Shown: positions 14,070-59,462 of the stretch, one piece after another | How the letters are laid out: every line of letters starts with the position of its first letter | Numbering within the stretch: position 1 is the first letter of the stretch | NCBI GenBank assembly: GCA_024679065.1 | Contig: JAGIQG010000009.1 | Location: 72,354,001-72,418,000, forward strand | DNA length: 64,000 nucleotides | Direction of reading: 5' to 3' | From: Sphyrna mokarran | Lineage: Eukaryota | Translations under genes and position numbers: made by a program | Notes under the pieces: model-generated | Told to the model about the DNA's origin: nothing | Seen by the model: the letters and a program-made list of their open reading frames with translations, nothing else | Database searches by the model: none

Positions 14070-14885
14070 ACTATCTGCATCATCAAAAACTTAAAATCTT
14101 CATGAATCAGCTCAATGGGGAAGCTAAATGGAACATGTGTTTTAGCATCAGGTCGTATTCCCATTTTTTTCTTAACATAGGCAATTTCATTAATTTAGCT
14201 GAAAATGGATTTACCACCAAAAAATAAATAAAAAGTGTACGCATTCTCCAGCCGGTAGATTTAAAATGACTGAAAATAATTTAACAGAACCAAACCCATT
14301 TAATAGTTTGATTTACATAGGCTAATTAGCTTCTTAATAATTTTTGTTTTGATCTGTAAAGCTTTTAAAACATGCAACTAATGATTGTGCATCTAAGAAA
14401 ATGAACATCATTTAAAAGGACCTTCCTAAACCACCAGAATTTCACAACATAGCCTTGGGATCAAGCAAGGCTGGTTTGTGTGGGGGCTTAATTCGGGCAA
14501 ATTGAACCTTGAACCGATTAAATAGTTTGTGGAAAACAGAACAGTCATTTTCTTAGGTGCTCTGTCATTTAGTTAGCATACCTTTAAAGCTTTTCACATC
14601 AAAAAAATACCATTTGTTAAGAAACTGATTAGCATAGGCCAATTAAACTGTTAAATTGTTGAGTTTCATTAAATTATTTTCCATGATTTTAAATCTAACA
14701 GGTGGAAAATTGGACACGCTTTAAAAATGGTTATTTTTGGAGTTAAACCCATTTGGAACAGAATGAATAAAATCTTCAGCTCTTAAATAAGGATTGGGTA
14801 TATTTATTAACGGAAAATAAATTCATTGAACTGCCCGAGTAAACTATTTCATTGAAGGTTTTAAGTTTTTGATTATGCAAATAAA
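14070..14885. repeat. about 810-bp degenerate palindrome
   Basis: Arms align throughout: 14072-14106 with 14849-14883; 14256-14290 with 14665-14698; 14298-14340 with 14614-14656; 14351-14404 with 14545-14600; central AGCCTTG...CAAGGCT at 14451-14472. Confidence 0.85.
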
Positions 14886-15639
14886 TTTCAGTGAAACTGG
14901 AAGCACAAGAAGCACAATTTCAAGCATATTTTGAGTGTAATTTCTCAATTGGGCCCACGGGGAAACTCGAGCCACATATGTATGACTGACTACACAATCT
15001 TCTAGATTCAGATCATTGCAGAGCCTGTTTTCCACTGCCACTTTGCTTCATCTGTGAGTAAAAAAAACCTTATAAATCCAAGGACTGTGTGATGTTGGAG
15101 AAACATTTGTAGGCGAAAAGAAATAGCTCTCCACTGTACTGTTATTGCAAACTTAATAAATATTTCAACTCAGGAAAGGACTGGAGCTCCCCCAATAAAT
15201 TCAGACTTGCCAGTTAAGTTAGATGCAAACTTTTTTTTTGGAAGGGTAATCGATTGGGTCAGCAATTCAAGGACTGACAGCTGATATGTCTGAGGGCTGC
15301 GTGTGTGAGCTGATTTTGAGAATGTATTTAAATGTCTCATCAGGCTGTCAGGCACAGCTATTTCCTCAAGTTTTTTTTTTGGACTAATGGAATTTTATTG
15401 TCAAGGAAAAGCTGGACTCCATACTCAGATACTCCAATACTGTATGACAGATTGAAGACAAGATCCATCATACTTACCTTATCATTCTAACAGTCATGGG
15501 GAATTGTTGAATACTTTAATGAAGGGGAGAGCTTGGCAGTGATAGAAGTAGGAGTGCTGTATCTTAAAATTAAGCTGCCTTCGGACAGCAGGACAATATT
15601 TGCCTCATGTACTGTTGGAATCTGTTCTTAAGCAGCTTT

Positions 15640-16084
15640 GATGTGGAGATGCTGGCTTTGGATAGTGGTAAACACATAAGAAGTCTCACAACACCAGGTT
15701 AAAGTCCAACAGGTTTATTTGGTAGCAAAAGCCATTAGCTTTCAGAGCGCTGCTCCTTTGTCAAGTGAGTGGGATTTTGGTTCACAAACAGGGCATATAA
15801 AGGCACAAACACAATTTACAAAATAATGAGAGTCTTTCCAGGTAATCAAGTCTTAAAGGTACAGACAATGTGAGTGAAGAGAGTGTTAAGCACAGGTTAA
15901 AGAGATGTGTATTGTCTCCAGTTAGGACAGTTAGTGAGATTTTGTAAGAACAGACAAGTGGTGGGGGTTACAGATAGTTTGACATCTGTACGCACTATGT
16001 TACACCATCTGTACACGTATTATGTCAGACTATCTGTAACCCCCACAATGTGCCTATGCTTGCAAAATCTCACTAACTGTCCTA
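15640..16084 (-). mobile_element. Penelope-like element pLTR with inverted partial copy
   Basis: Antisense to 61975-62334; 15923-15985 is repeated inverted at 16022-16084. Confidence 0.85.
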
Positions 16085-17984: not shown

Positions 17985-18560
17985 AGTGATACCACTCTCA
18001 CTCCTCTGTCAGAGGGTTAATGGTTCAAGCCCCATCCTTGGGACTTGAGTGTATTATCTAGGTTTACAGCTCTGTGTAGGACCAAGAACATAGAACATAG
18101 AACATAGAACATTACAGCACAGAACAGGCCCTTCGGCCTTCGATGTTGCACCGACCATTATAAAAAGCAATGACCCTCCAAACTAAATCATTCCCTTCTC
18201 TTCCATAAACTTATCAACTAACCTCTTAAACGCCACCAAACTTGGCGCATCTACAACTGCCACAGGCAGGGCATTCCACTCCCTAACCACCCTCTGGGTA
18301 AAGAACCTACCTCTGATATCCGTCCTATAACTATCACAATAGTTATAGTGAGTGCTGCACTGTCAGAGGTGTCATATTTTAGATCAGAACTACAATTAAA
18401 GCCCACTTATTGTTCAGTTCAATATGCAACATTCGCTTGCATTGCTAGAAATGAACGGATTCTCCCTCTGTCAGGATCAAACATTCTCCTTCACTGAACA
18501 CCATCATGAGGAGTTAGCCAGCCACTCAGCCCAGTTGCTGTTTTGTGGGACTTTGACCTC
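17985..18560 (+). mobile_element. Deu-domain SINE interrupted by a CR1 3' fragment
   Basis: GGTTCAAGCCCC B box, GACTTGAG..., GAGTGCTGCACTGTCAGAGGTG, TTGCTGTTTTGTGGGA. Confidence 0.65.
18085..18337 (-). mobile_element. young CR1 3' fragment
   Basis: (AGAACAT)n tail and CAGGCCCTTCGGCCTTCGATGTTG, antisense match to the 3' end of the CR1 at 30070-30141. Confidence 0.9.
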
Positions 18561-18652: not shown

Positions 18653-19781
18653 GGGCATGAAATTGGACTTGGTAATGCCCATTGTTTGTGGCATCTATGG
18701 TGTGGATTCTCACCTCTGCTATGAAGCAGCCGCATGCTATATTAGGAAAAGAAACAGCGAACATAGCTAATGTCTCCTAGATGACAGGGACACCATACTG
18801 TCAGAGCACTATGCTCCAGTGGATGACATCTCTTAACCATGCATGGCTGAACACATATTAAACTGTATAAAGGACACCTCAACACCACCATTAGCACTAC
18901 TTATAGGAATTATCAACTATTTACATGTTAGTTGCTGGCTGATTTCTTCTGACTTCTGACACAACTCTACAAGTGTCTGATGTTTTCCAATGCTGTTTTG
19001 CGTTGCAAATGTCTACAATGAGTGGTTATGTCAGGAACTGGAGGACCGAGCTTTTGCTGACTTCCAGTCTTCTGTACAAATCAGTAGCTACCAGATATGG
19101 GTAGCCCAGTGGTCTTCCTCTTAGCATTGAGCATGAGAGAGAGAATAAGCAAAGGCCATGGAGAGAAAGACAAACTGCTAGAAAAAGAAGGAGGAGGCGA
19201 GAAGGAGAAGGTTTCTCAATAGGAGGCAACATCTGCAAAGGTACTCGGGTAGTAGGCCAGTTGGGGACAAGATTGCAGAAGCATTGTGTTTCCCCATAAG
19301 TCCAATTGCACACTTGTATCCATGATGGCAGTCTGAGCTTCCATATGAGTGAGCTGAGATTGCAGGAGGCAATTGGAGTTCCCAATGCAGCATTCCGATT
19401 TTTGGGTGGATACTGCTCGTGTTGCAGTGGAAGCTGAGACATTGAGCATCAGGCACTGTATCATGCCTCAGCCATTGTGTCTCTGTGTGAAGTTTGCACT
19501 TTGTCCCTGTGTCTGCATGAGTTTCCACTGGATATCCAAAGACATGTAGGTTAGGTTGATTGGCCATGATAAATTGCCCCTTAATGGCAAGGGGGCTAGG
19601 AGGGTAAATATGTGGGGTTATTGGTATAGGACAGAACCTGGGAGGATTGCAGTTGGAGAGGGCTCAATAGGCCAAATGGCCTCCTTCTGTGCTGTAGATC
19701 CTATGATTCTATGGTTGGAACATCAGGTGTGTTCATGGAATTGGTCACTATTTTATGTTGATAGAGTCCAATTTCACTGCC
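18653..19781 (+). mobile_element. PIF/Harbinger-like DNA transposon, internally deleted
   Basis: TIRs GGGCATGAAATTGGACT (18653) and AGTCCAATTTCACTGCC (about 19765-19781); Arg-rich decayed reading frame at 19096-19250 reminiscent of a Harbinger transposase N-terminus (recall, unverified). Confidence 0.5.
19476..19712 (+). mobile_element. HE1 SINE, 5'-truncated
   Basis: V-core AGTTTGCAC...GATTGGCCATG and tail GATCCTATGATTCTATG. Confidence 0.85.
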
Positions 19782-23581: not shown

Positions 23582-24775
23582 AAGAACAAAAGAACAAAGA
23601 ACAAAACGGCATAGGAAACAGGGCCTTCGGCTCAACGAGCCCACGCCGCCACCTCGATGTTCCCACTTCTACCCATGATCCCTGTCATCCCTGTCTATGT
23701 TTATAGACCTATGCATTAGAACCAAATTTGAGACAATTTAGGGAGAATTTGTTCTGCCAATCAGCCTAAGAGCACATCTTTGGGATGTGGGAGAAAACCG
23801 CACCACCCGGAGAAAACCCAGGCAAGCACAGGGAGAATGCTCAAACTCCCACAGACACAGGCCCAAATCCATGTATCTGCACAGCACAGCGATAGTCACT
23901 GAGCTGTGGTGTTGCCCATCAACTGGTCCAGGTCAAGTGTACACTAACGACGTGAAGCACTAGGATACTCTCAAAAAATCCAAGAGTAGCCCTCTCACAA
24001 CCCGTCGCATGTATGCCCCTTGTTAGACAAGTCAGGCTGAAGTACCTGTAGAATAAAACAAATACATCAATATCATCAAAAATTTACACACTTCCCAGAG
24101 AACTCCCAAGGCTCATGATCTTTATTTTAAATCAGTTTTCTATATCCCTCCATTCCCATTCTATTTATGTGCCCATCTAAGTATCTCTTAAATAACTCCA
24201 GAGTACCTGCCTCCACCACATTATTTGGCAGCGCATTCCATACCCCCACCACCCTCTGTGTGAAAAAATTCCTTCTAGCATCCAAATTATACCTTACCCC
24301 CCCCAACCTAAACCCGTGACCCTTTGTGTTATTTGAGTCCATCCTAGGAAAAAGCTTAACCTTGTTTATTCGATCTATATCCCTCATAATCTTGTACACC
24401 TCTATTAGATCTCCTCTAAGTCTACGTCTTTCTAAGGAAAACAGCCCCAATTTGCCTAACCTCTCCTCATAACTCAGACCTTCCATACCAGGCAGCATCC
24501 TGGTAAACCTCCTGTGCACTCTCTCCAGAGTCTCCACGTCCTTCCGGTAGTAAAGTGACCAGAACTGGACGCAGTATTCCAAATGAGGTTTAACCAACGG
24601 TTTATACAACTGCAACATTAAAGGCCAGCTCTTGTACTCTATACCCCTTCCTATAAAGGCTAGCATACCATATGCTTTCTTCACAACCTTCTACACCTGC
24701 TCTGCCACCTTCAGAGACTTGTGCACCTGCACCCGAGGTCCCTCTGCGTTTCTATACTCTTAACCTATTAAGAGT
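23582..24775 (-). mobile_element. chimeric CR1 LINE with HE1/V-SINE-containing 3' UTR (copy 1)
   Basis: Open ORF2 C-terminus 24684-24127, then about 210 nt unique UTR, an HE1-like head and V-core (23918-23750), and a (TCTTTGT)n tail at 23582-23605. Confidence 0.85.
24127..24684 (-). pseudogene. CR1 ORF2 C-terminal 185 aa (5'-truncated copy)
   Basis: KKAYGMLAFIGRGIEYKS...LEYCVQFWS...ERRRLRGDLIEVYK...FFTQRVVGVWNALP. Confidence 0.9.
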
Positions 24776-24999
24776 ATCATATACCCCCGTTATCATACAC
24801 CCCCCCGCTACATTCTTTCTCCCTCTTCATTACTCACCTCAAAAATCACAATGCTGCAGCCTCACTTAAATACAACCTGCAATACATTTTGCAAAGTATG
24901 TGCAAAATGGGCAATAATAGTGAAGTACGGAGTAGAGATAGGAGCACAACATTACGGGCTGAGATCAGAATGGTGAGATAGTGAAAAGGATGCTGCAGA

Positions 25000-25332
25000 T
25001 AGTGGTAGGAATGTGTGGGATAGATTCAGAAACACTGAGCAGGCAGTGAGTGGAATGTGAAGGATAGAGACAGGAGCACTGAACAGACAGTGAGAGGAAT
25101 GTGTGGGTTAGAGACAGAAACACTGTACAGGGAGTAAAAGGAACGTGTGGGATAGAGATAGGAATTCTAAAGGCAGCAATAGGAATGTGTGAGTTAGAGA
25201 CAGGAACACTGTACAGGCACTGAGAGGAATGTGTGGATTAGTGATAGGAACACTACAGGCAGCAATAGGAATGTGTGGGTTAGAGACAGGAACACTGTAC
25301 AGGCAGTGATAGGAATTTATGGATAGGAACAC
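25000..25332. repeat. minisatellite, about 44-bp unit, about 7 copies
   Basis: Unit approximately GAGACAGGAACACTGTACAGGCAGTGAGAGGAATGTGTGGGTTA. Confidence 0.85.
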
Positions 25333-28336: not shown

Positions 28337-30141
28337 AGATATGTTAAGAATAGAAGATTGGTTAGGGCAAGATTAGGGCCAGTCATAGACAGCAGTGGGA
28401 AGTTGTGCGTGGAGCCTGAAGAGATTGGTGAGGCACTGAATAAATATTTCTCTTCGGTATTCACGCAGAGTGCTGGAAATGTAGCTATGGAGAGCACTGA
28501 GGTACAGGGTTGCAAATTGGGGAGTATTGTAGTAGATAGGGAGGATGTGTTAGAAATTCTCGAGGGTTTGAAGTTGGATAAGTCCCCTGGGCCGGACGGG
28601 ATTTACCCTAGGATTCTCTGGGAGGCAAGAGAGGAGGTTGCAGAGCCTCTGGCTCTGATCTTCAGGTCCTCGTTGGTTACGGGTGTGGTTCCGGAGGACT
28701 GGAGGATAGCGAATGTGGTCCCATTGTTTAAGAAGGGGAAGAGAGACCTTCCTGGGAATTATAGGCCAGTGAGTCTTACTTCTGTGGTGGGCAAGGTATT
28801 GGAGAGAATTATTAGGGATAGGATTTATAGTTATTTAGAGAGAAATGAATTGATTGGGGATAGTCAGCATGGTTTCGTGAAGGGTAGGTCATGCCTTACT
28901 AACCTCATTGAGTTTTTTGAGAAAGTGACCAGAGAGGTGGATGGGGGTAAGGCGGTTGATGTAGTATATATGGACTTTAGTAAGGCGTTTGATAAGGTGG
29001 CCCATGGTAGACTTCTACAGAAAATGAAGATGTGTGGAATAGAGGGTGATTTAGCTAATTGGATTAGGAATTGGCTGGCAGATAGAAGACAGAGGGTGGT
29101 GGTTGATGGGAGATATTCATCGTGGAGTTCGGTGACAAGTGGTGTACCTCAGGGGTCTGTTTTGGGGGCCCCTGCTGTTTGTAATTTTTATAAATGATCT
29201 GGATGAGGGTATTGAAGGATGGATTAGTAAATTTGCAGATGACACTAAAGTCGGTGGAGTGGTAGATAGTGAAGAGGGGTGTTATAGTTTGCAGAGAGAC
29301 TTGGACAAGTTGCAGAGCTGGGCCGAGAGGTGGCAAATGGAGTTTAATGTGGAAAAGTGTGAGGTAATGCACTTTGGCAGGAACAATAAATGTGTAGAGT
29401 ATAGGGCTAATGGTAGGGCTCTTAATAGTGTTGAGGAACAGAAGGATCTTGGTGTATGTGTCAATAGATCCCTGAAAGTAGGCAGTCAGTGGATAAAGTT
29501 GTTAAGAAGGCATATGGAGTCTTAGCTTTTATTGGTAGGGGGATTGAATTTAGGAGCCGCAGCATCATGTTGCAACTGTACAAAACTCTAGTGCGGCCGC
29601 ACTTGGAGTATTGTGTGCAGTTCTGGTCCCCACATTATAAGAAAGATGTGGAGGCATTGGAGAGGGTACAGAGGAGGTTTACCAGGATGTTGCCTGGTAT
29701 GGAGGGCAGGTCCTATGAAGAGAGGTTGAAGGATTTGAGGTTGTTTTCGTTAGAAAGGAGGCGGCTAAGAGGGGATCTTATTGAAGCATATAAGATGATT
29801 AGAGGTTTAGATAGGGTGGACAGTGATAGCCTTTTTCCTAGGATGGAGAAAGCTAGCACGAGGGGACACAGCTTTAAATTAAGGGGTATGAGTTATAGGA
29901 CGGATATCAGAGGTAGGTTCTTTACTCAAAGAGTGATTAAGGAGTGGAATGCCCTGCCTGCAGCTGTTGTAGATGCGCCAAGTTTGGTGGCGTTTAAGAG
30001 GTTAATTGATAAGTATATGGAAGAGAAGGGAATGGTTTAGTTTGGAGGGGCATTGCTTTTTATTTTGGTCGGCACAACATCGAAGGCCGAAGGGCCTGTT
30101 CTGTGCTGTAATGTTCTATGTTCTATGTTCTATGTTCTATG
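28337..30141 (+). mobile_element. young CR1 LINE, 5'-truncated (about 1.8 kb)
   Basis: RT domain with KSPGPDG, NYRPVSLTS, DFSKAFD, GVPQGSVLG and FADD (29232-29243); (TGTTCTA)n tail. Confidence 0.97.
28358..30040 (+). pseudogene. CR1 ORF2 reverse transcriptase with two 1-bp frameshifts
   Basis: Three overlapping ORFs (28358-29197, 29139-29525, 29489-30040) join into one RT plus C-terminus; no in-frame stops otherwise. Confidence 0.93.
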
Positions 30142-31479
30142 TCATAAAACAAAGGGAAAAGGGAATGGTAATGCTTGTAGTGAAGAAATGAAGCATTTGT
30201 GCAGAGTGAGTGAGAATGGCAGAATGATGAATAGCTCTGTGAAAAGCAAAAATACAAAAAATGGCATTCAAAGAAATAAAAACAGAATCAAAATGAAGGA
30301 TAATGCTCATGGTCTGAAATCTTTGAACTCAATGTTGAGTCCAGAAAGCTGCAAAGTGCCTAATAAGAAGATAAGGCTGAGCTTGGGTTGAGTTTCACTG
30401 GAAGACTCATCAAGCCAAGGACAGAGACAATCAAGACATGAATTAAAATGATAAGCAACAGGAAACTCAGGGCCACGTTTGCAGACTGAGTGGAGATGTT
30501 CCTCGTAGAGATCGCCCAATCTTGTTTGGTCTCCCCAGTTTAGAGGAGACGACATTATGAGAAGTGAATCCAGTAATCTGAATTGAAAGTACAAGTAAAC
30601 CACTGCTTCACCTGGTCTTGGATGATATGGTTGGAGGCAAAGGGACATGATTGGCCCTTTGTAGTCTTCTGGACTCAACACTGAGTTCAAAATTTCAGAC
30701 CATGAACTCAATTTTGATTCTATTTATTGTTCTTGCCATCTGCTAGTTTGAACCTTGTTTCTCATTAATTTTCCTTTTGTACAGACTGCTCATTACAGTC
30801 TGGACAAATCCTTGTCTCTTTACTAGAATGATGACCAGTCCCTTTGCTCTTTGTTCCATGATGTCTGAATGATTTAATCTCTCCTGACCTCTATCTCCAG
30901 ACCTTTTCTCGTGATCTTCCTCACCCATGCCCACTTTTGATAGCATGAAACCCATCACGTTTCTGCCTTCCTTCAATTCTGAAGAAGAGTCATATCCCAC
31001 TTGGAAAGTCTACTCTGTTCTTCTCGCTCTCTAGACACTGCCAGAGTTGCTGATTATTACTGCCATTTTCTCTTTTAACTTCAGGCAAGTTAGCAGCTAA
31101 AAATATTAAGCACTTATTGACAAGATTTCCCCATTGTGTCTTCAATCCCCTTATTTACCCTTGTGTTTCCACTGTGTCTTCACTGGGGACCTCCAGAGCA
31201 CTCAGAAAGCCCATGGGTCCCAAGTAAAATTACGAAACCTTGTCAATATTGTGTTATTTGAGTGGTTAACATATGGAAATTGAAAACTGACAGCTCCCAT
31301 GTGGGCAACTCACAGGCAATCTCAGTCACTGCAGTGCAGGTTAAAAATCACCTTCCCAATATGCTTGAAATTTCCCTCAATGCCACCCCTTCCCCACCCC
31401 CACTCCCACTCCAAACCCAAACTCACATTTGTCAATTTAAACCCCCCAACCTCTTCTCCCCGCCCCCGACACTTCACCT

Positions 31480-31625
31480 TTGTTTCCAGCATAACTGTAA
31501 CACTACATTCTGCATTCTCTTGTTTCCCTGCCTATGAATGGAATGCTCTGTTTGTTTGGTGTGCAAGAAACTATGCTTTTCACTGTATGCTAACATATGT
31601 GATGATAATAAATCAAATCAAATCA
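31480..31625 (+). mobile_element. LINE 3' tail (L2/Rex-like) ending AATAAATCAAATCAAATCA
   Basis: Second copy antisense at 32898-33045; clade assignment from recall. Confidence 0.65.
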
Positions 31626-32523
31626 TTTCTATTCTGGTTTCAGATTTCCACCATCTGCCGGATTTTTGGGTTTAGTCTGAAGGAAAGATTGTATACGGGG
31701 TATCTTGGAACAGCGATTGATCGTGAACACAAACAAGTTCAACAACTCCCTCGGTCCGGACTGTCTTCAATAATGCAGCAAAAAAAAAGGATGGAGGAAG
31801 TTTTCTGTCCAGAAAGCAGTCTGTGGGAGGAGGTCCGAAGCAGGCAAACTGTGTTGCTAATCCTCTTGCAATTCCCATCCGTCAGAACATCCTTCCCCCC
31901 GCCCCACTCCCCACATACACAACTGCCTGATTCCATTTCTCTATTTCCGTACCTGCTGCCCACTGTGCTATGCTGAATGTCGAAGCTGATGCAGTCAGCA
32001 CAAATCATTATCTCAAGTAAAAATCATTCACAGCGCAGGCTGAGCACAAACATTAATCATCATGAGCCAGTGTGCAATGTTCCCTCATAAAGAAACATTC
32101 CATTAATATCTAAAAATGCTCTTTATTCTCTTGCTGAATTAGCGAGGAGGAGCAACATTTTTAGTCGGCTGACGGTTTGTTAATTAACGTATGTTTTCGA
32201 TTGCAGGTGGATGTTGCCAGCCAGAAATGGGTGTCCCTTGCCTCCTAGCAACCAAGTCATAAGTTTATTTTCAGCCCCAAAGAAGTCGGGCACCCTGGTC
32301 CGTCCCTGGACAGAATCATCATGGTGGCCCCCAGGGATCTTGTGCACAAATATCCTGTTTGGTCACATATCAGCTGCAGTCTGATGGAATGGAAAACCTG
32401 GCAGTTAATGAAGACTCCTGAGTGATCTAAGGGCACCCAGATTCACACACACGTGGTCAATGATGCCCCGCGACAGTGGGAATCCACCAGAACCACAGGC
32501 TTTGACTGGCATCATCAGTGTCA

Positions 32524-33303
32524 AAGTTTGCATCCCTGGCGAACGATCCATCCATCACTGGTCTTGTGCATTTGTTTGCTTCAACAGGGGCAATCCTGAA
32601 CAATGCTCTGGGGAAGGCCTGCAAGGATTCAGTGGCAAAGCAGACAAGAGCAGAAGACAGCCTTTCAGCAGGTCAGTTTGTGAAAGGATGAATGTGTCCG
32701 CTTCACCAGCTGACACGACATGCTCAATTTCCTGCTGCACTGCTGTTCTGTCATGTCCAGCTCTGCCCATGCAACCTATGTGTGCATAGTGTCTCCTGTG
32801 AGCTGTACATTGCTACTTAATCCAGCCACAGATCTCTCAAATCACACTGACCTGGCCATAATGCACATCTATCTGAGACCTGCTCCAAAGAAGACTTTGA
32901 TTTGATTTAATTTATTATTGTCACATATATTAACATACAGTGAAAACTATTGTTCATTGCGCATGATACAGATAAAATATACCATTCATAGAGAAGGAAA
33001 CTAGAGAGTGCAGAATGTAGTGTTACAGTCATTGCTAGGGTGCAGAGACTTCAGGAAATTGAATACATCATGTTAGCTTTGATACGGATACATTCATCCT
33101 TTCACAAGGTGACCTGCTTACCCTGATAGTCCTGAATGATTGCTCTCCGGCCTTGTCTACTTTGCCTCTGAATCCTTGCAGGGCTTTTCCAGAACATTGT
33201 TCAGGATTGCCTCTTTGGAGGCAAACAAATGCACAAGTGATGGACAGGGTGCAACCAATCTTGATGTGATTCAGAAAACCTCCAAAGTTTAGGAAGCAAA
33301 CTT
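32524..33303. repeat. inverted repeat, arms 32524-32733 and 33052-33303
   Basis: Core 32563-32648 versus 33152-33237 is 76/86 identical by hand count. Confidence 0.9.
32898..33045 (-). mobile_element. LINE 3' tail inserted in the spacer of the inverted repeat
   Basis: TGATTTGATTT...TTTATTATTGTCACAT; flanked by an AGACTT direct repeat (32892-32897, 33046-33051). Confidence 0.75.
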
Positions 33304-35609: not shown

Positions 35610-36818
35610 GTAATGGGATTTCAACTGCCCCAATATTAACTGGGATAGGCAAAGTGTGAAAGGCTTAGAAGGGGCAGAATTCTTAAATTATATCCAGGAG
35701 AGTTTTTGAGCCAACGCATAGAAAAGTCTTAAGCGAGGGGGCAGTACTGGACCTAATTTTACAGAATGAAGCTGAGCAGGTGTCAGAGATCTGTCAGAGT
35801 GTCTTTGGGAGCATTTTGGCAATAGTGATCATAACTTTATGTAAGAGTGAATTAATAGTTTTATTAAAAAGGGCAATAGATCTAACACCCTTCTGTCAGA
35901 GTAAAATCACTTGTGAGATCATCTTATCAAAAGAATTCAGCAGCAAGGTTGTTTGCTTTGATTCTATCTATTCATGCTGAACCAATATTTGTTGCCTATC
36001 CCTAATAATCCTGAATGGTTCTCTAAGCCATTTCAGAGGGCATTTAAGAGACAACCATATTGCTATGGATCTGGAGTCCCTTCTAAGCCTTTCACACTTT
36101 GCCTATCCCAATTAATATTGGGCCAGACCAGGTAAGGATGGCAGATTTCCTTCCCTAAAGGACATTAATGAAGCAGATGTATTTTTACAACAATGAGCAA
36201 TGGTTTCATGGTCACCATTAGACTTCTAATTCCATACTTTAATTGAATACAAATTTCAACATCTGCCATGATGGGATTCAAACTTAGATCTCCAGAGAAT
36301 TACCCTGGGTCTCTGGATTACTAGTCGAGTGACAACATTACTATGTCATTGCATTCCCATGTTAGAAAAGTAGACAGTTCCTAACTAGATTACAAACAAC
36401 CTTTTGAGTGAAAGATTAATAATAAACCTACATAGACAGCACTGCGATATTAAAACGAAGTTCTGTTTACTGAATAACTGGAAAAGTAATCTGCACCTGG
36501 GACTTAGAGAAATTACAATATCCTCTCTGCGATTGCAATGTTTGAGTTGTGAGAGCTGTTTCAGAGGAGGGTGCTTCCCCAGAGGTTTCTTTGAGGTAGT
36601 TGAATCAAGGATAAACCACTCCTGTGGTTAGCTGGAAGATGTCCACCACAACACTTGGTAAGATATAAGGTATTTATGAAAAAGGATAAAGATGGACTGG
36701 AATTAAAGATTCTGAATTGGGGGAAGGCCGATTTTAATATAAACAGACAAGATCTGGACTGGACCAGCAGCTTGTAGAAAATCCACATCAGAGCAGTGAG
36801 AGGCATTCAACAAACAAC
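35610..36818 (+). mobile_element. old CR1 endonuclease-domain fragments (35610-35870 and 36660-36818)
   Basis: GDFN.PNINW...FL..IQE...AVLDLI; continues at 38657. Confidence 0.7.
35985..36357 (-). mobile_element. MetaSINE (SlmI-like) tRNA-derived SINE
   Basis: Antisense of ...TTCATTAATGTCCTTTAGGGAAGGAAATCTGCCATCCTTACCTGGTCTGGCC core; same family as 49933-50262. Confidence 0.8.
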
Positions 36819-37655: not shown

Positions 37656-37999
37656 GCACAATGTCTGGTCTTAGTCTGTCCAGGTTCTGCCTAGAATCTC
37701 CTGGAATTTCTGAACACACTGTGTGCAATCCTGGAAAAAAAAATCACTGAGACATTAAAAAATGATTTTCTTTGAACTGTTTACAGATAAAAATATTGAA
37801 AATGAGAAGAAAGGGCAATGTGGCTTTGGTCATTCTTCATCCAATTGGGTAATGAGTCTTTTTGCTTTCCAATTGGTGTAGTCAGAAGGTGATATGTCAC
37901 AAGGGTGAATGTGTTGGCTGACTAATGGCGGGAGTATTGGGGCGAGTCATGTGATCATGTAAATGAGGCTGGAAATGTGTTTGAGGCGGTTTAGATAAA

Positions 38000-38168
38000 G
38001 TTTTTGAGATTGATACCTGGAATGAATGGGTTGACTTTTGAGAAAAGATTGGAAAGATTGGGTTTGTTTCCATTAAAATTTAGAAGAATGAGGGGTGACT
38101 TGATTGAAGTCTATAACATCCTGAATGGCCTTGACAAACTGGACATCATTGAAAGGATGTTTCATCTT
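38000..38168 (+). mobile_element. old CR1 ORF2 fragment
   Basis: RLIPGMNGLTFEKRLERLGLFPLKFRRMRGDLIEVYNIL. Confidence 0.85.
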
Positions 38169-38169
38169 T

Positions 38170-38656
38170 ATGATATTGATGTATTTGTTTTTATCCTACA
38201 GGTACTTTAGTCCGCCTTGTTGTCTAACAAGGGGCATACATGCGATGGGTCGTGAGAGGTCTGCTCTTGGATTTTTTTTTCAAGAGTATCCTAGTGTTTC
38301 ACATCGTTAGTGTACGCTTGACCTGGACCATTTGATGGGCAACACAACAGCTTAGTGACTATCGCTGTGCTGTGCAGATACATGGATTTGGGCCTGTGTC
38401 TGTGGGAGTTTGCGCACTTCCCGTGCTTGCATGGATTTTCTCTGGGTGCTCCGTTTCTTCCCACATCCCAAAGATGTGCTCTTAGGCTAATTGGCAGAAC
38501 AAATTCTCCCTAAATTGTCTCAAATTTAGTTTCAATCCATGGATCTATAAACATAGACAGGGATCACGGGTAGAAGTGGGAACATCGAGGTGGCAGTGCG
38601 GGCTTGTTGGGCCGAAGGGCCTGTTTCCCGTGCTGTTTTGTTCTTTGTTCTTTGTT
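38170..38656 (+). mobile_element. chimeric CR1/HE1 3' UTR (copy 2)
   Basis: Collinear with the reverse complement of 23582-24078; (TCTTTGT)n tail. Confidence 0.85.
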
Positions 38657-40535
38657 AAACAACAGAAAGAGTACAGGGCCAGCGTGTTCCCATAAAGGTA
38701 AAGGGTAGTTCAAAACATCCAAAGAACCCTGGATTTCAAAGGATGTACAGGATTGGATAAGGAGAAAAGAAGGCTTGTGACAGACACTGAGAACTGAAAA
38801 CAGTAGGTGCACTAGAATAGTATAACAAGTGGAGATGGGTATTAAAAAATAAATTAGGAGAGTGAAGAGGAATAAACACAGATAGGCATGATAAAGGAAA
38901 ATATTAGTATATTAAGGTACAAGGGAAAGCATAAGATTTATTGAAAACTAAAGTTCAATGTAAATATAGAAGAGAAGTGCACTGGGTATAATTGAACAGA
39001 TTATCGTCAAAGAGAAGAGGTATTAGAAGTTTTAGTGGGCATAAAAATGGATAAACTCCCAGACCCAGGTGAAATGTATTCTAGGCTACTTGAGGTAAGG
39101 GAGGAGATTGCCAGGGTTTTGATGCTCATGGTCAAATTCTCTCTAGCTACAGGAAAGATGCCAGGGGATTAGAGGATAACTAACATGACTCCATTATTCA
39201 AGAATGGAAGTAGCAAAAAACCAGGCTACTACAGGCCAATAAGCTTAATATCAGTGGTACAAAAACTATTGAAACAATTTCTGAGGTACAGAATTAATCT
39301 CCACTTGGGGAGGACAAGGATTAATCAAAGCTAGTCAGCATGGCTTTGTCAGGGGGAGATCACACCTAACAAATTTGATTGAATTTTTTGAGGAGCCAAT
39401 TAGCTGTATAGATGGGCATAGAGCAGTTGATGTATTCTATGTCCATTTCCATAAATCTTTGACAAGGTCCCTCATGGAAGACTAATCAATCTTCCAAATT
39501 GTCAGGACAGTTTGACAAATCAGATCTAAAATTGGCTCAGTGGCAAGATGCAGGGGACAATGGTCAAAGGTTGTTTTTGTGATTGGAAGCCTATGTCCAG
39601 AACTGTACCACAGGGGTCAGTGCTGGATTCCTTTCTGTTTGTAGTATACAATAATGGTCTAGATGTAAATGTGGGAGGTATGATCAGTAAGTTTGCTGAT
39701 GATTCGAAATTGGTTGTTTGGTAAGTAATGAGGAGAAAAGCCTTAGATTACAAAACAAAATAGATTGGCTGGTCAGATGGGCAAATGGTCCAGTGGCAAA
39801 TGGAATTTAACTCTGAAAAATGTGAGCTGATGCATTTTGGGAGGACTAACAATGAACAGCAGAATGCTAGGAAGTACAGAGGGCCCTTTAGGTGCATGTC
39901 CAAAGATCCATGAATGCAGCAGAACTGATAAATAAGGTGGTTATAAAAGGATTTATGATTCTTGCATTTATTTGCTGAAGAATTGATTATAGAAGCAGGG
40001 AGATTATAATGAAACTACATAAAACACTTGTTAAGCCACATCTAGAGTACTGTGTGCAGTCCTGGTTGGCACACTATAGGATGGATGTGATTACACTAGA
40101 AAGGGTACAGAAGATCAGGATGATGCCTGGACTGGAGCATTTCAGCTATGAAAGTGTCTTTGGCTAGGCTGCGGTTGTTTTCCTTGGAGCAGACAAATCT
40201 GAGGTTTCAGGTCAACATTATGACAGATACAGACAGGGTAGATAAGAAATTTTTCCCCTGAGAAGAGGAGTTAATAACTTGGGGACATGGACTTACAATA
40301 AGGGGCAGAAGACATAGAGGGGAAATGGAGGAAAATCTTTTCCATCCAGAGGATGGGGCGAATCTGGAACTCACTGTCTGATGGGGTGGTGAAGGCAGGA
40401 ACCCTCAGAAGATTTAGGAAGTATTTAGATAAGCACTTGGATCAGGTGTTGAAAAATGGAATACCATAGATTGGTGTTTGATGACTGGCACAGTGGGCTG
40501 AAGGACCACTTGCTGTGTTGTAGAAATCTATGGCA
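38657..40535 (+). mobile_element. old CR1 LINE ORF2 (about 1.9 kb, decayed)
   Basis: Decayed YRPISL, QHGFV, FDKVPH, VPQGSVL and FADD (about 39692-39703) motifs plus 3' tail. Confidence 0.9.
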
Positions 40536-41079: not shown

Positions 41080-41412
41080 TTTATTTCTTCGTGGGCTGTG
41101 CCAGCATTTATTGCCTATCGTTAATTGTCCTTCAGCTGAGTTGCTTTTTTTAAGAGCCAACAACATTGCTGTGGATCTGGAGTCACATGTAGACCAGACT
41201 AGGCAAGGATAGCAGATTTTTTTTCCCAGATGGACATTAATGAACCAGATGGGTTTTCACAGCAATGGTTTCATGGTCATTGTTTGTCTTTTAATTCTGG
41301 ATTTAATATTGAATTCAAATTTCACCATCTGCCATGCTGGGTTTCAACACTGTGTCGCCAGAGGGTTGCCCTGAATCTGTGGAATACCAGTCCAATGACA
41401 ATACCACTATGC
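41080..41412 (-). mobile_element. MetaSINE (SlmI-like)
   Basis: CTGGAGTCACATGTAG...GGACATTAATGAACCAGATGG antisense core. Confidence 0.8.
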
Positions 41413-41524
41413 ATTGTTAAGCAATCGCAAATGTCAAATCTTTGCAACCCTCTCAAGATAAGTGAATAATATCCAGGAAGATGGATTTAAGTTAGTGGTG
41501 ATTTTGTAAAAAGTAAAAAGTAAA

Positions 41525-42959: not shown

Positions 42960-43870
42960 GGGGGTAATTCTCCCATCATGACCCACAACTTCTCTGGCAG
43001 GTTGTACTTGGAGATGTGCATCGCTGACCTTCTTCCAGAATTTGTGCTGGCGTCAGCAACACATGCTCATCTCCCAGAGCAGGAGAACAGTCGGAGACCA
43101 GATCACACTGGAAACTGGTGGTAAGACTGGTAAGTTATTTGAATTTTTTAAAATGTATTTAATTGTGTTTTACATTTCATTATCGGGAACTTGTCAGTCC
43201 TGATTGGATCTCCCACCCTGCCAGGAGTACTTAATTCCGGCAGGATTTACACCAACTCCCCATGTTCGGGGAACTAGCAGGAGATCCTGTCGGAATGAAA
43301 GGGGGGGTAATTCGGACTCCCCTCGGGGAGTGGGGGGGGGGGGGGGGGGGAGCGAGGTTGGGTGACAGGAGATGGTGCCCACTGAACATGAACACTCTGA
43401 CAGTGTCAGCCTGTGCTCCTGGCATAAACACAGTGAGAAATCTCACAACATCAGGTCCTGGTGCTCTGAGACTTCTTACTGTGTTTACCCCAGTCCAACA
43501 CAGGCATCTCTACATCATGACTCCCTTGCATTGCTCGAGGGACAAAGTGCCCATGACTGGGGGGGGTACCTTGACACTGCCTGAGGGGTTGGAGCCTATT
43601 GTGGACAGGGCCTAGGGGTGATCGGTAGAATGTAGGATGCCACTCTACATGGCGATTGGTCTAGGATGGAGAGAGGGCAGCAATTTTAGTGGGCTGGGAG
43701 GAAAGATGTGTGGACTGCTGGGGTGGGGGGGGAGTGCCTGTTTCCTGGTAGGAGGTGGGAGGGAAGTCTGACCTCAGGGGGGAGTTAGTGGGGGGCAGTG
43801 GGGTCTGCTGGGGTGAGGTGGTGTAGGGAAATCATCATTGCCAGAAGGAGGGTTTTTAATGAGATTCAGG
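42960..43870. mobile_element. GC-rich composite MITE/Harbinger-like region with a G-run at 43326-43350
   Basis: GGGGGTAATTCTCCC and GGGGGGTAATTC TIR-like starts; ends not resolved. Confidence 0.4.
43425..43519. mobile_element. Penelope terminal fold-back micro-insertion
   Basis: TAAACACAGTGAGAAATCTCACAACATCAGG / CCTGGTGCTCTGAGACTTCTTACTGTGTTTA. Confidence 0.8.
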
Positions 43871-45614: not shown

Positions 45615-45946
45615 GGGGGCGGCATGGCACAATGGTTAGCACTATTGTCTCACAGCACTTGGGTATGGTTCCAAGCTAGGAACTGTCAGTGACTGTCAGT
45701 GTGGTGTTTCTACATTCTCCCCATATTTGCAAGGGTTTCCTCCAGGTGCCTCAGTTCCCTTCCACAGTCGGAACGATGTGCGGGTTAGATGAATTGGCCA
45801 TGTAAATTGCCCCTGAGTGTCAAGGGGATTAACAGGATAAATGCATGGGGTTATAGGGATTAGGCCTGAATGGGATTGTGCTCAGTACTGACTCAATGGG
45901 CCGAATGGCTTCCTCTGCACTGTAGGGATTCTATGATTCTATGATT
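45615..45946 (+). mobile_element. HE1 SINE, full length
   Basis: GGGCGGCATGGCACAATGGTTAGCAC head, V-core, ATTCTATG tail; TGATTCAGG duplicated at both ends. Confidence 0.9.
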
Positions 45947-47496
45947 CAGGCAGCATCTGCAGGGAGGGAAACAAGGTTTCAGTTCCATAATCTTTCATCA
46001 GCAGTTTTGTATTACAGTATGGGATGGGCAGGATGACACGCTCTGGAAATAGCAAGTCTCACTGTCAATCATATAATATATTCTCAAATGCAGCCTTTCG
46101 ATCAACACAATTGAACTCCACAGGCAATAAATTCCATTCCATCTCTGGCCCTTAGTGTGCTCCCAAGCTCCCAATCCCCCACCTATGTGATATTCCCAGC
46201 TCTTTAGAAATTGATGCTAAGCATCAGAGCTTAATCCTCAAAACTTCATGCTGACTCTGAACTCGAGAGATAGGCAATAGATGCTGGCCCAGCCAGGGAC
46301 ATGAACATTCCATAAATGAATTAAAATGAAGGTGCTCCTTTGGATTAAATACTTTATAAAGTATACTGCATTGTAAAGTATGCCATTCTCTTTCGAGCAT
46401 TAAGTAGTCTTCAGTAATGATCAGTGACACTAACCTAAGCATTAGGAATCTTGAACAAATAGAAGGAATTCAGAAATCAAAGCTCTTGTCCATGATGTTT
46501 GCAAGTCTAATTTGGTAACATAGTTCATAAAAGTGTTAATAATAAAAGTGACAAACCCTCACTATTTCATCACTGCCAGAACATATTATTGATGTTGAGG
46601 GAATAAAACGCAATGAAATCTCACGCAATTTGTGCTTTTTTTAAAATTATAGAATAGCAAAAACTTATTCTGGAGAAGTTTCCGTGAGGAAAGAAGTCAA
46701 AGCTAAACAGCACCATATGTCCCAATCTTGTAACCATGAGTGCCTCATGAGAGATGATGATACCAGAAGGGAGTTAGAGACAGTAGGAAGTCATTACAGG
46801 TTGAGAAACAGGCTAAAAATGAAAAAGGGCAAGTGTTTGGGACAAGAAAATTTCGCAATTACAGCTTAATGCTCCAGTGTTCCTCAAACCAGCAAAGTTG
46901 ATTCAGGTTTCTTGGGTCCTGCTTTGAAAAGGAGATTTCTGCAAAAGGAAACCATGTCTTCACGGACATTGGCTTCAAGTCCAGCACCAGGAACAGTACT
47001 ATAACAGAGCAAGGCTCTATCACTTATTACCCATGAACTCCTAGTTCCTTTGAATGGAACAATGCTATAAATTGCACATCCAATTCAAAGGCAAGAAATC
47101 ACTGACATTTGGCAGGGCGGGGAGGGGGGGGGTGGTCATGGGGGGGGCGGTGAGAAACGTTTAAGAGAAGCAAAGAAAAATGGGATGAGAAGAGAGAACA
47201 TAAAAAGAAATCAAAAGTCTTCAACGGCACACGAATAGTGAAATGAGATTTAAGCATGTAGGCAGGGGTCATGGCTAAAGGAGCACTTGGTAACTGCTTT
47301 CACCAAAGAGGAAGATGCTACTAATCTCTTGGCAGAAATGGAGATAATTGGATCAGCTGTAAATTGATAAAGAGGAGATGTTAGACAGGTTAACTCAAAG
47401 TTGATAAGTCACCAGAACCAGATCAGATACATCTGAGAACATTGAGGGAAATTCTGGAGGCCCTGACCACAATCTTCCAGTCCCTCCTTAGATATA

Positions 47497-47606: not shown

Positions 47607-47842
47607 AGACAAGTTCTCTGACACTGGTAGCACAAATGGATAATGTGGTCAAGAGGTATATGGCATGCTTGCCTTCATCAATCAGGACATAGAGAATAAA
47701 AGTTGACAAGTTATTTGCAGCTATATAGAACTTTACTAAAGCCACATTTGGAATGTTGCATGTAGTTCTGGTCACCACACTATCAGAAGGCTTTGGAGAA
47801 GATACAGAAAAGGTTTACCAGGTTTGGAGGATAGTAGCTCAA

Positions 47843-48165
47843 ATCGTAGAATCCCTACAGTGCAGAAGGAGCCATTCAGCTCATTGAACCTGCACCAACT
47901 ATGATCCCATTCAGGGTTTATCCCTGTAATCCTATGTATTTCCCTGCTAATCTCCATGACATCCAGGGGAAATTGAGCAGGGCTAATTAACCTAATCCAC
48001 AACATTTTTGGACTGTGGGAGGTAACTGGAGTACCCAGAGGAAATCCACATAGACACAGAGAGAATGTGCAAACTCCACACAGACAGTTACCCAAGGCTG
48101 GAATTGAACTTGAGTCCTTGGCGCTATGAGGCAGTAGTATTAACCGTTCTGCCACCATACCACTG
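47843..48165 (-). mobile_element. HE1 SINE
   Basis: Collinear with 11351-11669. Confidence 0.9.
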
Positions 48166-49519
48166 CATCTTTATGAGGAGCGTTTGGACAAATTTAGTTT
48201 GTTTTCACTAGACTGCTGGATGCTGAAGGGCAACCTGATAAAAGTTTACAAAGTTGTGAGACTGATGGATAGAATAGATAGTTGGACTCTTTACAAGTAT
48301 AGAAATGTCAATCATCAGGGGATGTGGGTGTAAGGTAAAAAGGGGGAAGGTTTAAAGGAGATGTGAGAGGCAAGTTTTTTAGATAGAGGGTGATAAGTGC
48401 CTGGAATCCGCTGCCAGAAGAAGTGGTAGAAGCAGATACAATAGCAAAGTTTAAGAGGCATCTTGACAGATATGTGAATAGATAGAGAATAGAGGGATAT
48501 TGACTGTGTAGAGACAAAAGGTCTTCAGTTTAGAAAGGTAGCAAATTCTCTCAGCACGGGCAGGCAGGAATTCGCAATCCCTGCCCTTACCTCATGGGAT
48601 CAAATATTTAAAGAGCACCTAAGATAGTCTACACTAGCCCTTCCACCTTTGTCTGGTCACTATACCAATCTTCCTCCCTAACCCTTCCTTAGTCTCCAAC
48701 CATACAACATGCACAATCACCAATTGGTTTAAACCATAGACTGGCATTTACAGATACTCCCAAAGAGGACCATGCAGCAACAACTTACCATTATTCATGG
48801 AAGATGGCCAGATGCACGTCATATATATATTCTTGTAAAAGTGAAGCCTTTATTTTCTCATTGACAGAAACTTCATTGGAGGAGGAACTTAATTCCAATG
48901 AGGTAGGGAAGCTCAACTTGCCTTTAAAGTCTCCAGAACTTAACTCCTTAAAATTATCCCATCGTCGGGAAACTGATTTTTGGTCTCACATCAAATTAAG
49001 ACTACCTCGCTTCCCACTGCTGGTAGGACTGGAAGATTCCACCTCTGAACTATATTTCTCGTCAGAGATACAGCCTGACTACAAGTTTCTACCCTCGCTC
49101 CACTCCCCTGGCATGTTCTGCAACCTGGAGATGGCCTAGCTTTGGCCAGTTGAGGGATCTACTGGTCCTGCCATTGTCAACAGGCTTTCCCGCTGTTCAC
49201 ACCCTCTGCCAGTGGGGGAACCTGCGGCAGGGGCTCGCTGTCAATGGGACTGGACAATCCCAGTGATGGGAATAGCTGGAAAATGCCACTTGTTGTGTAT
49301 TTCCAGAATTTTATTTCAGAGGCTGACTATCTTCTTTATTTGATTTTTGTTTTTGGAATCATGACAATACTGCTGAGACTTACCTGTGATTGGCTATATT
49401 TTAAACCTTAATACACGGTATGAGGAATGCTGTATCTAGTGGTTCTGTGCAGCTAACAAGGCGCATATTATGTATGTGCAAGGCATGGGGGCTAGCATCT
49501 ACTAATTACGTTTCTGATC

Positions 49520-57778: not shown

Positions 57779-58349
57779 AATGGAGATGGAGGGATATAGA
57801 AGACTGTTTTAAATAGGGATCAAGAGCCTTGGGATGTTCCTGGGAATTGCATAGTTGTGCATGTTATTGATGTTTTTCTCTTTTATCCTTCAGGTGCTTC
57901 GGTCCGCCTTGTTGTCCAACAAGGGGCATACATGCAATGGGTTGTGCGAGGGCTGCTCTTGGATTTTTCGAGAGTAGCCTAGTGCTTCACATCATTAGTG
58001 TACGCTTAAACTAGACCAGTTGATGGGCAGCACAGCAGCTCAGTGACTATCACTATTTGCTGTGCAGATGTATGGATTTGGGCCAGTATCTGTGGGAGTT
58101 TGCACATTCTCCCCGTGCTTGCGTGGGTTTTCTCCAGGTATTCCAGTTTCCTACCACACCCCAAAGATGTGCTCTTAGGCTGATTGGTGAAACAAATTGT
58201 TCCTAAATTGTCTCCCAGTTTGGTCTCCAATGTGGATTCCATAAACATAGACGAGTGGGAACTCATGCTGTTAAAATGGAGGCGCGACCTCGTTGGGCCG
58301 AAGGGCCTGTTTCTCATGCTGTGTTGTTCTTTGTTCTTTGTTCTTTCTT
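57779..58349 (+). mobile_element. chimeric CR1/HE1 element (copy 3) inserted in the Gypsy
   Basis: Begins with the CR1 ORF2 end ATGGAGGGATATAGAAGACTG, then the same UTR, an HE1 head GGGCAGCAC at 58025, V-core and (TCTTTGT)n tail. Confidence 0.85.
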
Positions 58350-59462
58350 TGTGGAAGTCCATGCAGGAGAATCTCCATTGTTTGCTGAAAATTGGCACAT
58401 GTCCTGAAACTCCAAAAGGCAACTGAATGAATTGGTGAGTACTGATTGTCGCATATGCCTTTCATGTTCTATTCAATTCCAACAGCTGATAAGATAGAGT
58501 TATGGAGCTTTACAGCACAGAAAGAAGCCTATTTGTCCTGTCCTGTCTGGAACAGCCATGGAGAACCTGTCTATTGAAATCCCATTTGACTCACATGTAG
58601 CTTGATGACTGAATTACTGTCTCTCTAACTTGGCCTTCAACATATCAATTTTGGAAATGGGGCACTTGTCAAGCTTTGCTTCTCTGAATGTAGTCACCGC
58701 GTGGATGTATGGTTTACTCTTGCTTGTGCTCTGGGAAGGTGGATGCGACCCACCTGGAAAACTGGGCAGACTAAATTATTCCCAGGTTTTCCAACCTACA
58801 CAAATCAGCTTCCACTTTTTTTCACTGAGTGAGTGAGGCATCCGCCTGGCCTTAAAGAAGTATGGTGTTTCCTGGGGGTTGTACGCCCTTCGGTTTTCCC
58901 AATTCATCCTAAAAAACAGAGTCATTTTTGTTTAAAAGTTCTGGAATTCCACAGGGCATCAAATAGGATGTTTTTGACCAGTCTAGTTTTCTTTTTTGCA
59001 GTCAATGTCAACCTAAAAAGCTGAGCTCCTAGCTCTCTATGACCATCACAGGAAGTTGGACTATCTACTGTTTGTAACAAACCAGAACAGCAGCAATGCC
59101 CTTGATGTGAATGGGCTCTCCAATGTAGGTTCTCAGATAGATAGACATGTACTCCAATGTCAATGCCTTATTCCCTTCACTGAGGTACTTGAACATGTAC
59201 TCCCCAACAACGGTAGCTGAAGTAGTGGTATCCATCTCCATCTGTAGTTGCTTGCCATTTACCTGTACTATCTTTACAATGGGCAAAGATTTAACAGCAA
59301 TTAACTGATTCAGAGGGGGTGATCTTATCAAAGAAATTCTAAGTGCCAAACAAGTATGAAAATAGGAGAGAATTGCATTGTTTATGGTTGGGCAAGTTTA
59401 AAATCTAATCTTACCAGACTGAGGAAAAATATGAATGAAGCAAGATCTGTTTCTCGCCAGCA

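Follow-up and report, generated by a model that had tools for sequence, protein, structure and literature searches.

Three insertions in a 64,000-nt stretch of the Sphyrna mokarran genome (contig JAGIQG010000009.1, forward strand, positions 72,354,001 to 72,418,000; this whole stretch is called the window below) join the 3' end of a CR1 LINE to part of a V-SINE. Copy 1 occupies 23582-24775 (-), copy 2 38170-38656 (+) and copy 3 about 57780-58351 (+), and the parts follow one order: CR1 ORF2 stop, spacer of ~210 nt, decayed tRNA-type head, V domain, CR1-type stem-loop and (TGTTCTT)n (Table 1). The copies and their order of parts were found where an initial annotation of this DNA had placed them; only the bounds of copy 3 were adjusted (57779-58349 in that annotation). 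The head and V letters quoted there are those of copy 3, and the tail stem of copy 1 has two substitutions.

Table 1. Positions of the three insertions, their parts and the comparison elements in the window
Feature	Position	Strand	Basis
Copy 1, inverted repeat at 5' junction (10-bp perfect arms, 4-nt loop)	24754..24777	.	sequence inspection
Copy 1, CR1 ORF2 C-terminal region, 5'-truncated; TAA stop 24127-24129	24127..24764	-	protein search, tree
Copy 1, spacer, 209 nt	23918..24126	-	profile, Rfam, folding
Copy 1, decayed tRNA-type head, altered A box, B box absent	23859..23917	-	alignment to free copies
Copy 1, V domain core	23772..23858	-	profile, alignment
Copy 1, post-V SINE body, ~45 nt, moderate homology	23727..23771	-	alignment
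Copy 1, indel-rich stretch, assignable to neither SINE nor LINE	23653..23726	-	alignment
Copy 1, CR1-type tail, GAAG-loop stem and (TGTTCTT)n	23582..23652	-	alignment
Copy 2, spacer, starting about 30 nt before CAG/GT	38170..38336	+	alignment
Copy 2, decayed head	38337..38395	+	profile, alignment
Copy 2, V core	38396..38479	+	profile, alignment
Copy 2, post-V body, unassigned stretch, CR1-type tail	38480..38656	+	alignment
Copy 3, last ten ORF2 codons and TAA stop	57780..57812	+	end of P0121 shared at 8 of 10 residues
Copy 3, spacer, CAG/GT at 57893, 14-bp stem-loop 57950-57980	57813..58024	+	folding, motif scan
Copy 3, decayed head	58025..58085	+	profile, alignment
Copy 3, V core	58086..58172	+	profile, alignment, count by eye against published V
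Copy 3, post-V body, unassigned stretch, CR1-type tail	58173..58351	+	alignment
Control CR1 family, RT present, ~100-nt UTR without V, GAAG stem, (TGTTCTA)n	28337..30146	+	BLAST, Pfam
Control CR1 family, second copy	18077..18332	-	BLAST
Best-kept free V-SINE of seven, A and B boxes, GAAT-loop/(TGATTCTA)n tail	11350..11668	-	profile
Other free V-SINEs	near 6638-6945, 19440-19716, 45620-45950, 47838-48160, 51080-51412, 63740-63945		profile

Other elements of the window

The control CR1 family is young: its two copies are 93% alike, and the RT of the long copy lies in three nearly open frames. Its UTR measures about 100 nt, compared with about 540 nt in the V-bearing CR1. ORF2 C-terminal-region matches numbered 12 in the window (several of them internal fragments, and the one at copy 2 belonging to an older neighbour), and a V domain followed within 700 nt downstream only at the three insertions. 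One free V-SINE, 47838-48160 (-), was inserted antisense in an old CR1 ORF2 (47650-48500, +). No host gene was found among the 31 of 52 long frames of the window compared with Pfam, which gave only RT, integrase and two sub-threshold matches.

Decayed LTR-retrotransposon relics with many stops, which we take to be Ty3/gypsy-like, were present at 57281-57592 (-) to about 61100 and at about 11700-12054 (+); the integrase match at 57284-57592 was weak (Pfam E 3e-4, below the cut-off). A further interspersed family of 4-5 copies, 68-80% alike and unrelated to the V-SINE profile, was observed at 36023-36351, 41149-41416, 49938-50263 and 61178-61863. Palindromic or inverted-repeat elements at 15639-16084, 61977-62334, 43409-43518, 1-49, 5574-5761, 14072-14883 and 31491-33237 are probably MITE-like DNA transposon relics.

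Boundaries of the insertions

In self-BLAST, copy 1 aligned with copy 2 at 87% over 499 columns and with copy 3 at 79% over 595 columns, and copy 2 aligned with copy 3 at 80% over 499 columns. The matches end at the element boundaries, so the flanks of all three copies are unrelated and segmental duplication, the objection that the initial annotation had raised against itself, is excluded. A spacer profile built from the three insertions themselves found no fourth place in the window (E 8e-71 to 6e-57 for the three; the next best match had E 2.7). The motif across the spacer/head junction was matched three times in the window, with 0.35 matches expected and three reached in 1 of 100 shuffles.

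All three copies are truncated at the 5' side, as had been proposed. Each starts 5' of the head; copies 1 and 3 reach the ORF2 stop, which falls at the same codon position in both. None of the three begins at the SINE head, and the window holds no free copy with a fusion-type head. CR1 LINEs are frequently 5'-truncated, and their target-site duplications are short or absent. A possible 5-bp duplication, TGGAA (57776-57780 and 58352-58356), flanks copy 3, and none was evident at the ends of copies 1 and 2. The fusion ends in an ORF2 truncation at one side and a microsatellite at the other; the anatomy of a MER6-like MITE (terminal inverted repeats, TA duplication, no ORF) was not found, an exclusion that rests on this anatomy, the inverted-repeat search having covered arms within 60 nt. 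The inverted repeat at the 5' junction of copy 1 is probably a fold-back made during integration.

Each copy has its own surroundings. A degenerate tandem array (24968-25324), its unit about 87 nt long, lies 200 nt from the 5' end of copy 1 and is followed by a CA-rich tract. Copy 2 is placed between two CR1 pieces of the same strand: upstream an older, stop-bearing fragment of an ORF2 C-terminus that lacks its own 3' end (37932-38169, +), and downstream a long, decayed ORF2 (38657-40530, +) that has a tail of its own near 40495. This arrangement could be the product of nested insertion and deletion, or of a template switch between CR1 families. Copy 3 sits inside the LTR-retrotransposon relic that reaches to about 61100.

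ORF2 end and CR1 identity

The open frame of copy 1 is still intact, as noted initially; its length is 187 codons from stop to stop (24127-24690) rather than 185 aa. Homology to CR1 starts further upstream, at 24764; between there and the open frame lie a frameshift near 24730 and, immediately before the frame, a stop. The C-terminal 187 aa gave 1,434 and 1,735 protein matches, the top ones being CR1-type proteins of birds, turtles and elasmobranchs. Identity was about 50% to bird CR1, 56-61% to proteins of Mobula, Leucoraja and Chiloscyllium, and 74-76% over the full length to two contig-derived proteins. A tree was built from the last 200 residues of 38 rows (two frames of the window and 36 of the 240 returned proteins, P0176 being excluded because it has no C-terminus). 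In it, copy 1 fell in a clade with P0121, P0122 and P0180 (support 98/96) that is nested among fish CR1s and separate from the young short-UTR family of the window; this CR1 assignment is based on the ORF2 C-terminus and not on RT. P0121 terminates in YRRLF and agrees with the final codons of copy 3 at eight of ten positions, so this protein lineage exists beyond the window. Vertebrate CR1 sequences also occur inside bacterial assemblies, where P0089 and P0099 are 68-69% identical to copy 1 and loci L001-L007 45-52%; these are most simply explained as host or other contamination.

Between copy 1 and the short-UTR family, 46, 35 and 98 differences were counted at codon positions 1, 2 and 3, respectively (178 codons). 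This third-position excess indicates that the lineage coded under purifying selection after its split from the short-UTR family. No copy reaches the RT domain, the frame of copy 1 had no Pfam match and no full-length copy with APE endonuclease and RT was seen, so the autonomy asserted in the initial annotation is only putative; an intact ORF2 may have been coupled to the V-bearing UTR. All copies also lack the 5' end, where an esterase-type ORF1 (PMC13343379) would lie. The insertions are a real CR1 variant that works as a CR1 does, in which every CR1 feature open to test was found and two of the features that define a V-SINE were absent.

Spacer between the ORF2 stop and the SINE head

Comparison of the spacer with Rfam gave no match (best E 1 and 8.3). 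All three spacers contain a 3'-splice-site-like motif, in which a branch-point-like motif and a T tract precede CAG/GT (24046, -; 38201, +; 57893, +). At the threshold that admits all three copies, 16 acceptor-like sites were counted in 128 kb of strand, and a strict threshold was passed by copy 3 alone. A donor-like GGTAAGG is present in the ORF2 of copy 1 near 24290-24297, and no spliced copy was seen in the window.

A stem of 10-14 bp with a U-rich loop is formed in the spacer of every copy (23962-23993, -; about 38257-38293, +; 57950-57980, +). A 7-bp hairpin without an Rfam match lies just 5' of this stem in copies 2 and 3. Taken as a whole, the UTRs are more stably folded than shuffled sequences (z -3.0, -2.1 and -2.3), and this signal is located mostly in the spacer, for which z was -1.4, -3.0 and -3.4; a z of -3 was reached by 5 of 120 random windows. 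The V domain alone folds no better than shuffles (z -1.7, -0.2 and -0.5).

Two candidate relationships between the spacer and V were not supported. A spacer-V duplex suggested by RNAalifold was paired equally well by 23, 11 and 3 of 30 shuffles, and the antisense alignment was at shuffle level. The spacer as a second, decayed V was matched by nhmmer in no case, and 78-986 of 1000 shuffles scored equally under four scoring schemes. A non-significant alignment of spacer positions about 14-110 to the pre-V and V region of the SINE did recur in copies 1 and 3, a weak lead by which the first half of the spacer may hold an older decayed V in tandem.

The captured SINE sequence and the tail

A profile made from six free SINE copies, with no fusion copy included, matched each insertion over a stretch that starts shortly before V and reaches to the tail (E 3e-20, 4e-19 and 2e-18). 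The fusion head begins at the first base of the SINE, and this local profile match does not extend over it. The best free head agreed with copy 3 at 22/30 positions and with copies 1 and 2 at 19/30 and 18/30; beyond the three copies, the free head matched by copy 3 was the only comparable 30-mer in the window. The fusion head is about 19 nt shorter than the heads of free copies. Its A box departs from the consensus at two positions, and no B box was found in any of the three copies under either of two alignments, in agreement with the modified A box and lost B box of the initial annotation. ARAGORN predicted zero tRNAs in the whole window, free SINE copies included.

For copies 1 and 3, the alignment of V to each of the six free copies scored above all 300 shuffles. 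The V of copy 3 matched the published V region of MER6 at 77/88 positions (counted by eye) and the local free-SINE majority at 75/87, and two V positions side with MER6 against the local majority (by eye). The donor named initially, an HE1/V-SINE, is thus retained as a V-SINE only, the copy 3 V being about equally near to MER6 and to the local SINEs. The HE1 label may have been taken from the host group.

Homology to SINEs fades beyond V. The first ~45 nt after V aligned with free SINEs at p<0.05 in 4 of 12 tests, and the next ~60-75 nt before the tail in 1 of 12. This pre-tail stretch, indel-rich in copy 1, is the region most different between the two lineages described below. Every copy ends in a GAAG-loop stem and (TGTTCTT)2-3, with no poly(A) and a repeat of only 2-3 units. 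Tail identity was 37-39/48 to the short-UTR CR1 of the window versus 27-35/48 to five free SINEs, with alignment scores of 48-59 versus 14-36, and the tail repeat is 7 nt in the fusion and 8 nt in the free SINEs. Folding of the tail stem gave z of -2.0 for copy 1, -3.9 for copy 2 and +0.9 for copy 3, so the extended stem of copy 3 is unsupported. Where the tail stems of copies 1 and 2 have changed on both sides, covariation was considered and rejected, since both changes lie at CpGs and can be explained by plain deamination. That the SINE makes up the 3' UTR as a whole, as had been described, is therefore not supported: head, V and ~45 nt are inside the UTR, but the tail is nearer CR1 and the pre-tail stretch has no clear SINE homology. 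From these alignments, the captured piece may best be read as a head, V and a little body within a CR1 UTR.

Source lineages and possible constraint on V

Amplification of the fusion as a unit over time, as initially suggested, was borne out, and at least two source lineages are present: copies 1 and 2 differ from copy 3 by private differences and by indels that copies 1 and 2 share. Over 452 columns, 21, 17 and 65 differences were private to copies 1, 2 and 3, respectively; leaving out the badly aligned post-V stretch, which keeps 350 columns, brought these counts to 18, 15 and 34. The SINE parts of the fusion are 84-91% alike and 66-74% identical to five free copies, which are 64-75% alike among themselves; this greater likeness suggests that the fusion was active more recently than the sampled free SINEs.

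Between lineages, pairwise identity was flat along the UTR (78-86%), at 79-86% in the spacer, 86% in the head, 85% in V, 84% and 78% after V and 79% in the tail. A benefit specific to V, which the initial annotation had raised as a question, was not supported, since V was no better kept between lineages than the spacer (74/87 versus 110/128 positions, 85% versus 86%; p=0.85). Against the free-SINE majority, V was retained at 84-86% of aligned sites and the head at 64-73% (p=0.036, 0.009 and 0.087), in three tests that share ancestry and are not independent, with the free-SINE majority used in place of the donor and one of six free copies showing an equal contrast; this is weak evidence of constraint on V. 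Two apparent contrasts proved to be artefacts of alignment. Quicker change after V than in V (65% versus 85%, p=7e-5) arose in the three-way alignment, the pairwise values of 84% and 78% not being significant, and 57% identity over the first 50 nt of the spacer became 79% pairwise. Most likely, V is a tolerated passenger in a folded UTR and not a required part of it.

Origin of the V-bearing CR1

The explanation favoured here, held with moderate confidence, is that a CR1 lineage captured the first ~190 nt of a V-SINE in its 3' UTR, that the promoter decayed and that V is now a passenger. A CR1 of cartilaginous fish would have taken up the head, V and ~45 nt of body in sense orientation, ~210 nt past the ORF2 stop, the captured piece being placed 5' of the CR1-type tail. 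A SINE may have inserted into the source copy and then lost its tail, or reverse transcriptase may have switched templates; the two routes are indistinguishable here. With the Pol III promoter decayed, the SINE part would be made only within the LINE transcript. The terminal stem-loop and (TGTTCTT)n would be the site at which ORF2 primes reverse transcription, as is established for the related L2 element UnaL2, and with early stops usual, the commonest products would be short copies consisting mostly of UTR, like the three truncated copies observed. The family persisted and split into its source lineages. The evidence base for this family is three copies in one window, and three points run against the explanation: V is less changed than the head relative to free SINEs, a contrast not expected of a pure passenger; the tail could have come from a SINE subfamily that has a CR1-like tail and is absent from the window; and copies 1 and 2 match the free head less well than copy 3 does, the profile match omitting the head.

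The foremost alternative is that V is selected in cis on the LINE RNA, for folding, stability, RNP assembly or priming, and that the Pol III promoter is selected against because it would give rise to a SINE transcript in competition with the LINE. The contrast of V with the head is what such selection would leave, V is still about 87% identical to the published V of unrelated elements (by eye), the UTRs as a whole are folded more stably than shuffled ones, and both promoter boxes are altered. Between lineages, however, V has no excess conservation over spacer or head; its own folding is at shuffle level, the spacer-V duplex was rejected, and the short-UTR CR1s of the window multiplied with no V in their UTR. 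Selection on V is accordingly regarded as a tentative possibility that is on balance unlikely. A broader version, in which an elasmobranch CR1 clade is autonomous and long-lived, keeps V under selection as a cis RNA element, has the SINE promoter disabled so as not to produce a parasite of its own and acts as a V-bearing donor for homology-based tail swaps among V-SINEs, is put forward a shade more tentatively still.

The single tail, the head running from the first base of the SINE and the lack of an old tail after the stop would also follow if transcription of a CR1 without a tail of its own had continued across ~210 nt of host DNA, perhaps the border of an intron and an exon, to the end of a complete V-SINE, whose CR1-derived tail the LINE then adopted. 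The branch-point-like motif, T tract and CAG/GT of all three spacers would suit such a boundary, but acceptor-like sites are not rare (16 per 128 kb of strand) and only copy 3 meets the strict threshold. The tail is moreover nearer CR1 than that of any free SINE of the window, and the pre-tail stretch has no clear SINE homology. Read-through departs from the favoured capture only in its account of origin, and is judged distinctly unlikely.

It is quite improbable that the insertions are a non-autonomous chimera whose ORF2 is a dead remnant and which moves in trans through other CR1s able to recognise the tail they have in common. RT is reached by no copy, a frameshift and a stop lie upstream of the copy 1 frame, and the end branch of copy 1 is the longest of its clade (0.28 versus 0.09-0.22). 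Against a dead remnant stand the 187 open codons, the stop conserved in both lineages, the third-position bias and the relatives with open frames; one frameshift and one stop are compatible with ~5% decay per copy.

That there is no family, only segmental duplication or chance SINE insertions behind CR1 ends, has very little to commend it beyond the richness of the window in both (seven free V-SINEs and about a dozen CR1 pieces), given unrelated flanks, junction, spacer and head changes common to all three copies, and SINE parts closer to one another than to free copies. A V native to the LINE UTR, from which V-SINEs derived theirs, can practically be discounted: LINE 5' parts are reported as the source of some SINE bodies in the accessible part of PMC5786205, but here a tRNA-type head precedes V, the neighbouring CR1 family has no V, and V-SINEs range from vertebrates to cnidarians (PMC4824008, available text) while the ORF2 belongs to one nested fish CR1 clade.

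Implications

Why SINE central domains have been conserved over hundreds of millions of years is an open question. A V-bearing CR1 allows two direct tests that are impossible in a SINE: one molecule offers both a spacer and synonymous sites as yardsticks for V, and V can be removed from an element that acts in cis while promoter and tail stay intact. Conserved SINE central domains are stated not to have been found in LINEs in the accessible part of PMC5804259, a paper of 2016, where the tail-exchange hypothesis is set aside on that ground; a V-bearing CR1 is a counterexample to this premise. Were V selected and an autonomous V-bearing donor real, the condition missing from the SINE-LINE tail-exchange hypothesis would be supplied. 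Even as a passenger, V could cause short copies to be masked as free SINEs, skewing SINE counts and ages in shark genomes.

Comparison with known systems

A literature search, mostly of open-access papers, gave no description of a V-bearing CR1 family. Neither PMC13295347 nor PMC5786205, in their accessible parts, yielded a precedent for a SINE inside a LINE UTR; the latter, a Repbase survey by Kojima, reports the LINE-to-SINE direction, and no mention of a LINE gaining SINE sequence was found in that portion of it. The collections of outside DNA hold little shark sequence and are no fair test of shark genomes: within that scope, the exact junction pattern was absent from GTDB, the junction was absent from plasmids and phages, and a word search with the junction frame found no copy in a collection likewise poor in shark DNA. 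The junction profile had one match, covering V only, among 1.84 billion proteins, and none of nine CR1-bearing loci from bacterial assemblies (45-52%) had V or spacer.

The pair formed by the HER1 LINE and the HE1 V-SINE of sharks and rays was reportedly described by Ogiwara in 1999 and 2002. HE1 is given as a shark and ray V-SINE and HER1 as its CR1 partner in the available text of PMC3747384 and PMC4824008. Compared by description rather than by consensus sequence, the present insertions resemble that pair, as far as its accessible account goes, in a CR1-clade ORF2, a V domain, a related 3' stem-loop and a short-repeat tail, and the host group is likely the same. The published pair are partners with a common tail, whereas here head and V lie inside the LINE unit and the promoter is dead.

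With the vertebrate CR1 LINEs of PMC13343379, in the part available, the insertions share the ORF2 C-terminus, 5' truncation and a microsatellite tail. That part lists 1,003 CR1-group consensuses, many from sharks and rays, and no mention of a SINE-derived UTR was found in it; the V-bearing family may well be present in the published library, unremarked. A motif search over the first 400 nt of these consensuses, which says little about their 3' ends, gave no match. For UnaL2, the accessible part of PMC1636434 reports that an L2-type ORF2 requires the 3' stem for retrotransposition.

Template switching is the route proposed for module exchange in the portions of PMC4758252 and PMC5499810 available. 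In the LP-SINEs of the former, LINE sequence is likewise joined 5' of a SINE body and ascribed to RT template switching; as described there, their head is about 70 nt of LINE 5' UTR and they encode nothing, whereas the 5' part here is the coding end of ORF2.

The closest precedent found is MER6/MER6A, a V domain carried by a Tc1/Mariner MITE (PMC6887750, available part), in which, as here, a piece of a V-SINE was captured by another mobile element and spread by amplification of its carrier. As described there, MER6 is a DNA transposon that codes for nothing and is bounded by terminal inverted repeats; it acquired the body and tail of the SINE but no head. What is new in the present insertions is a CR1 variant whose 3' UTR holds the head and V of a captured V-SINE with a dead promoter: unlike in MER6, the carrier is an RNA-mediated LINE, head and V are kept, and V is copied through RNA in each cycle.
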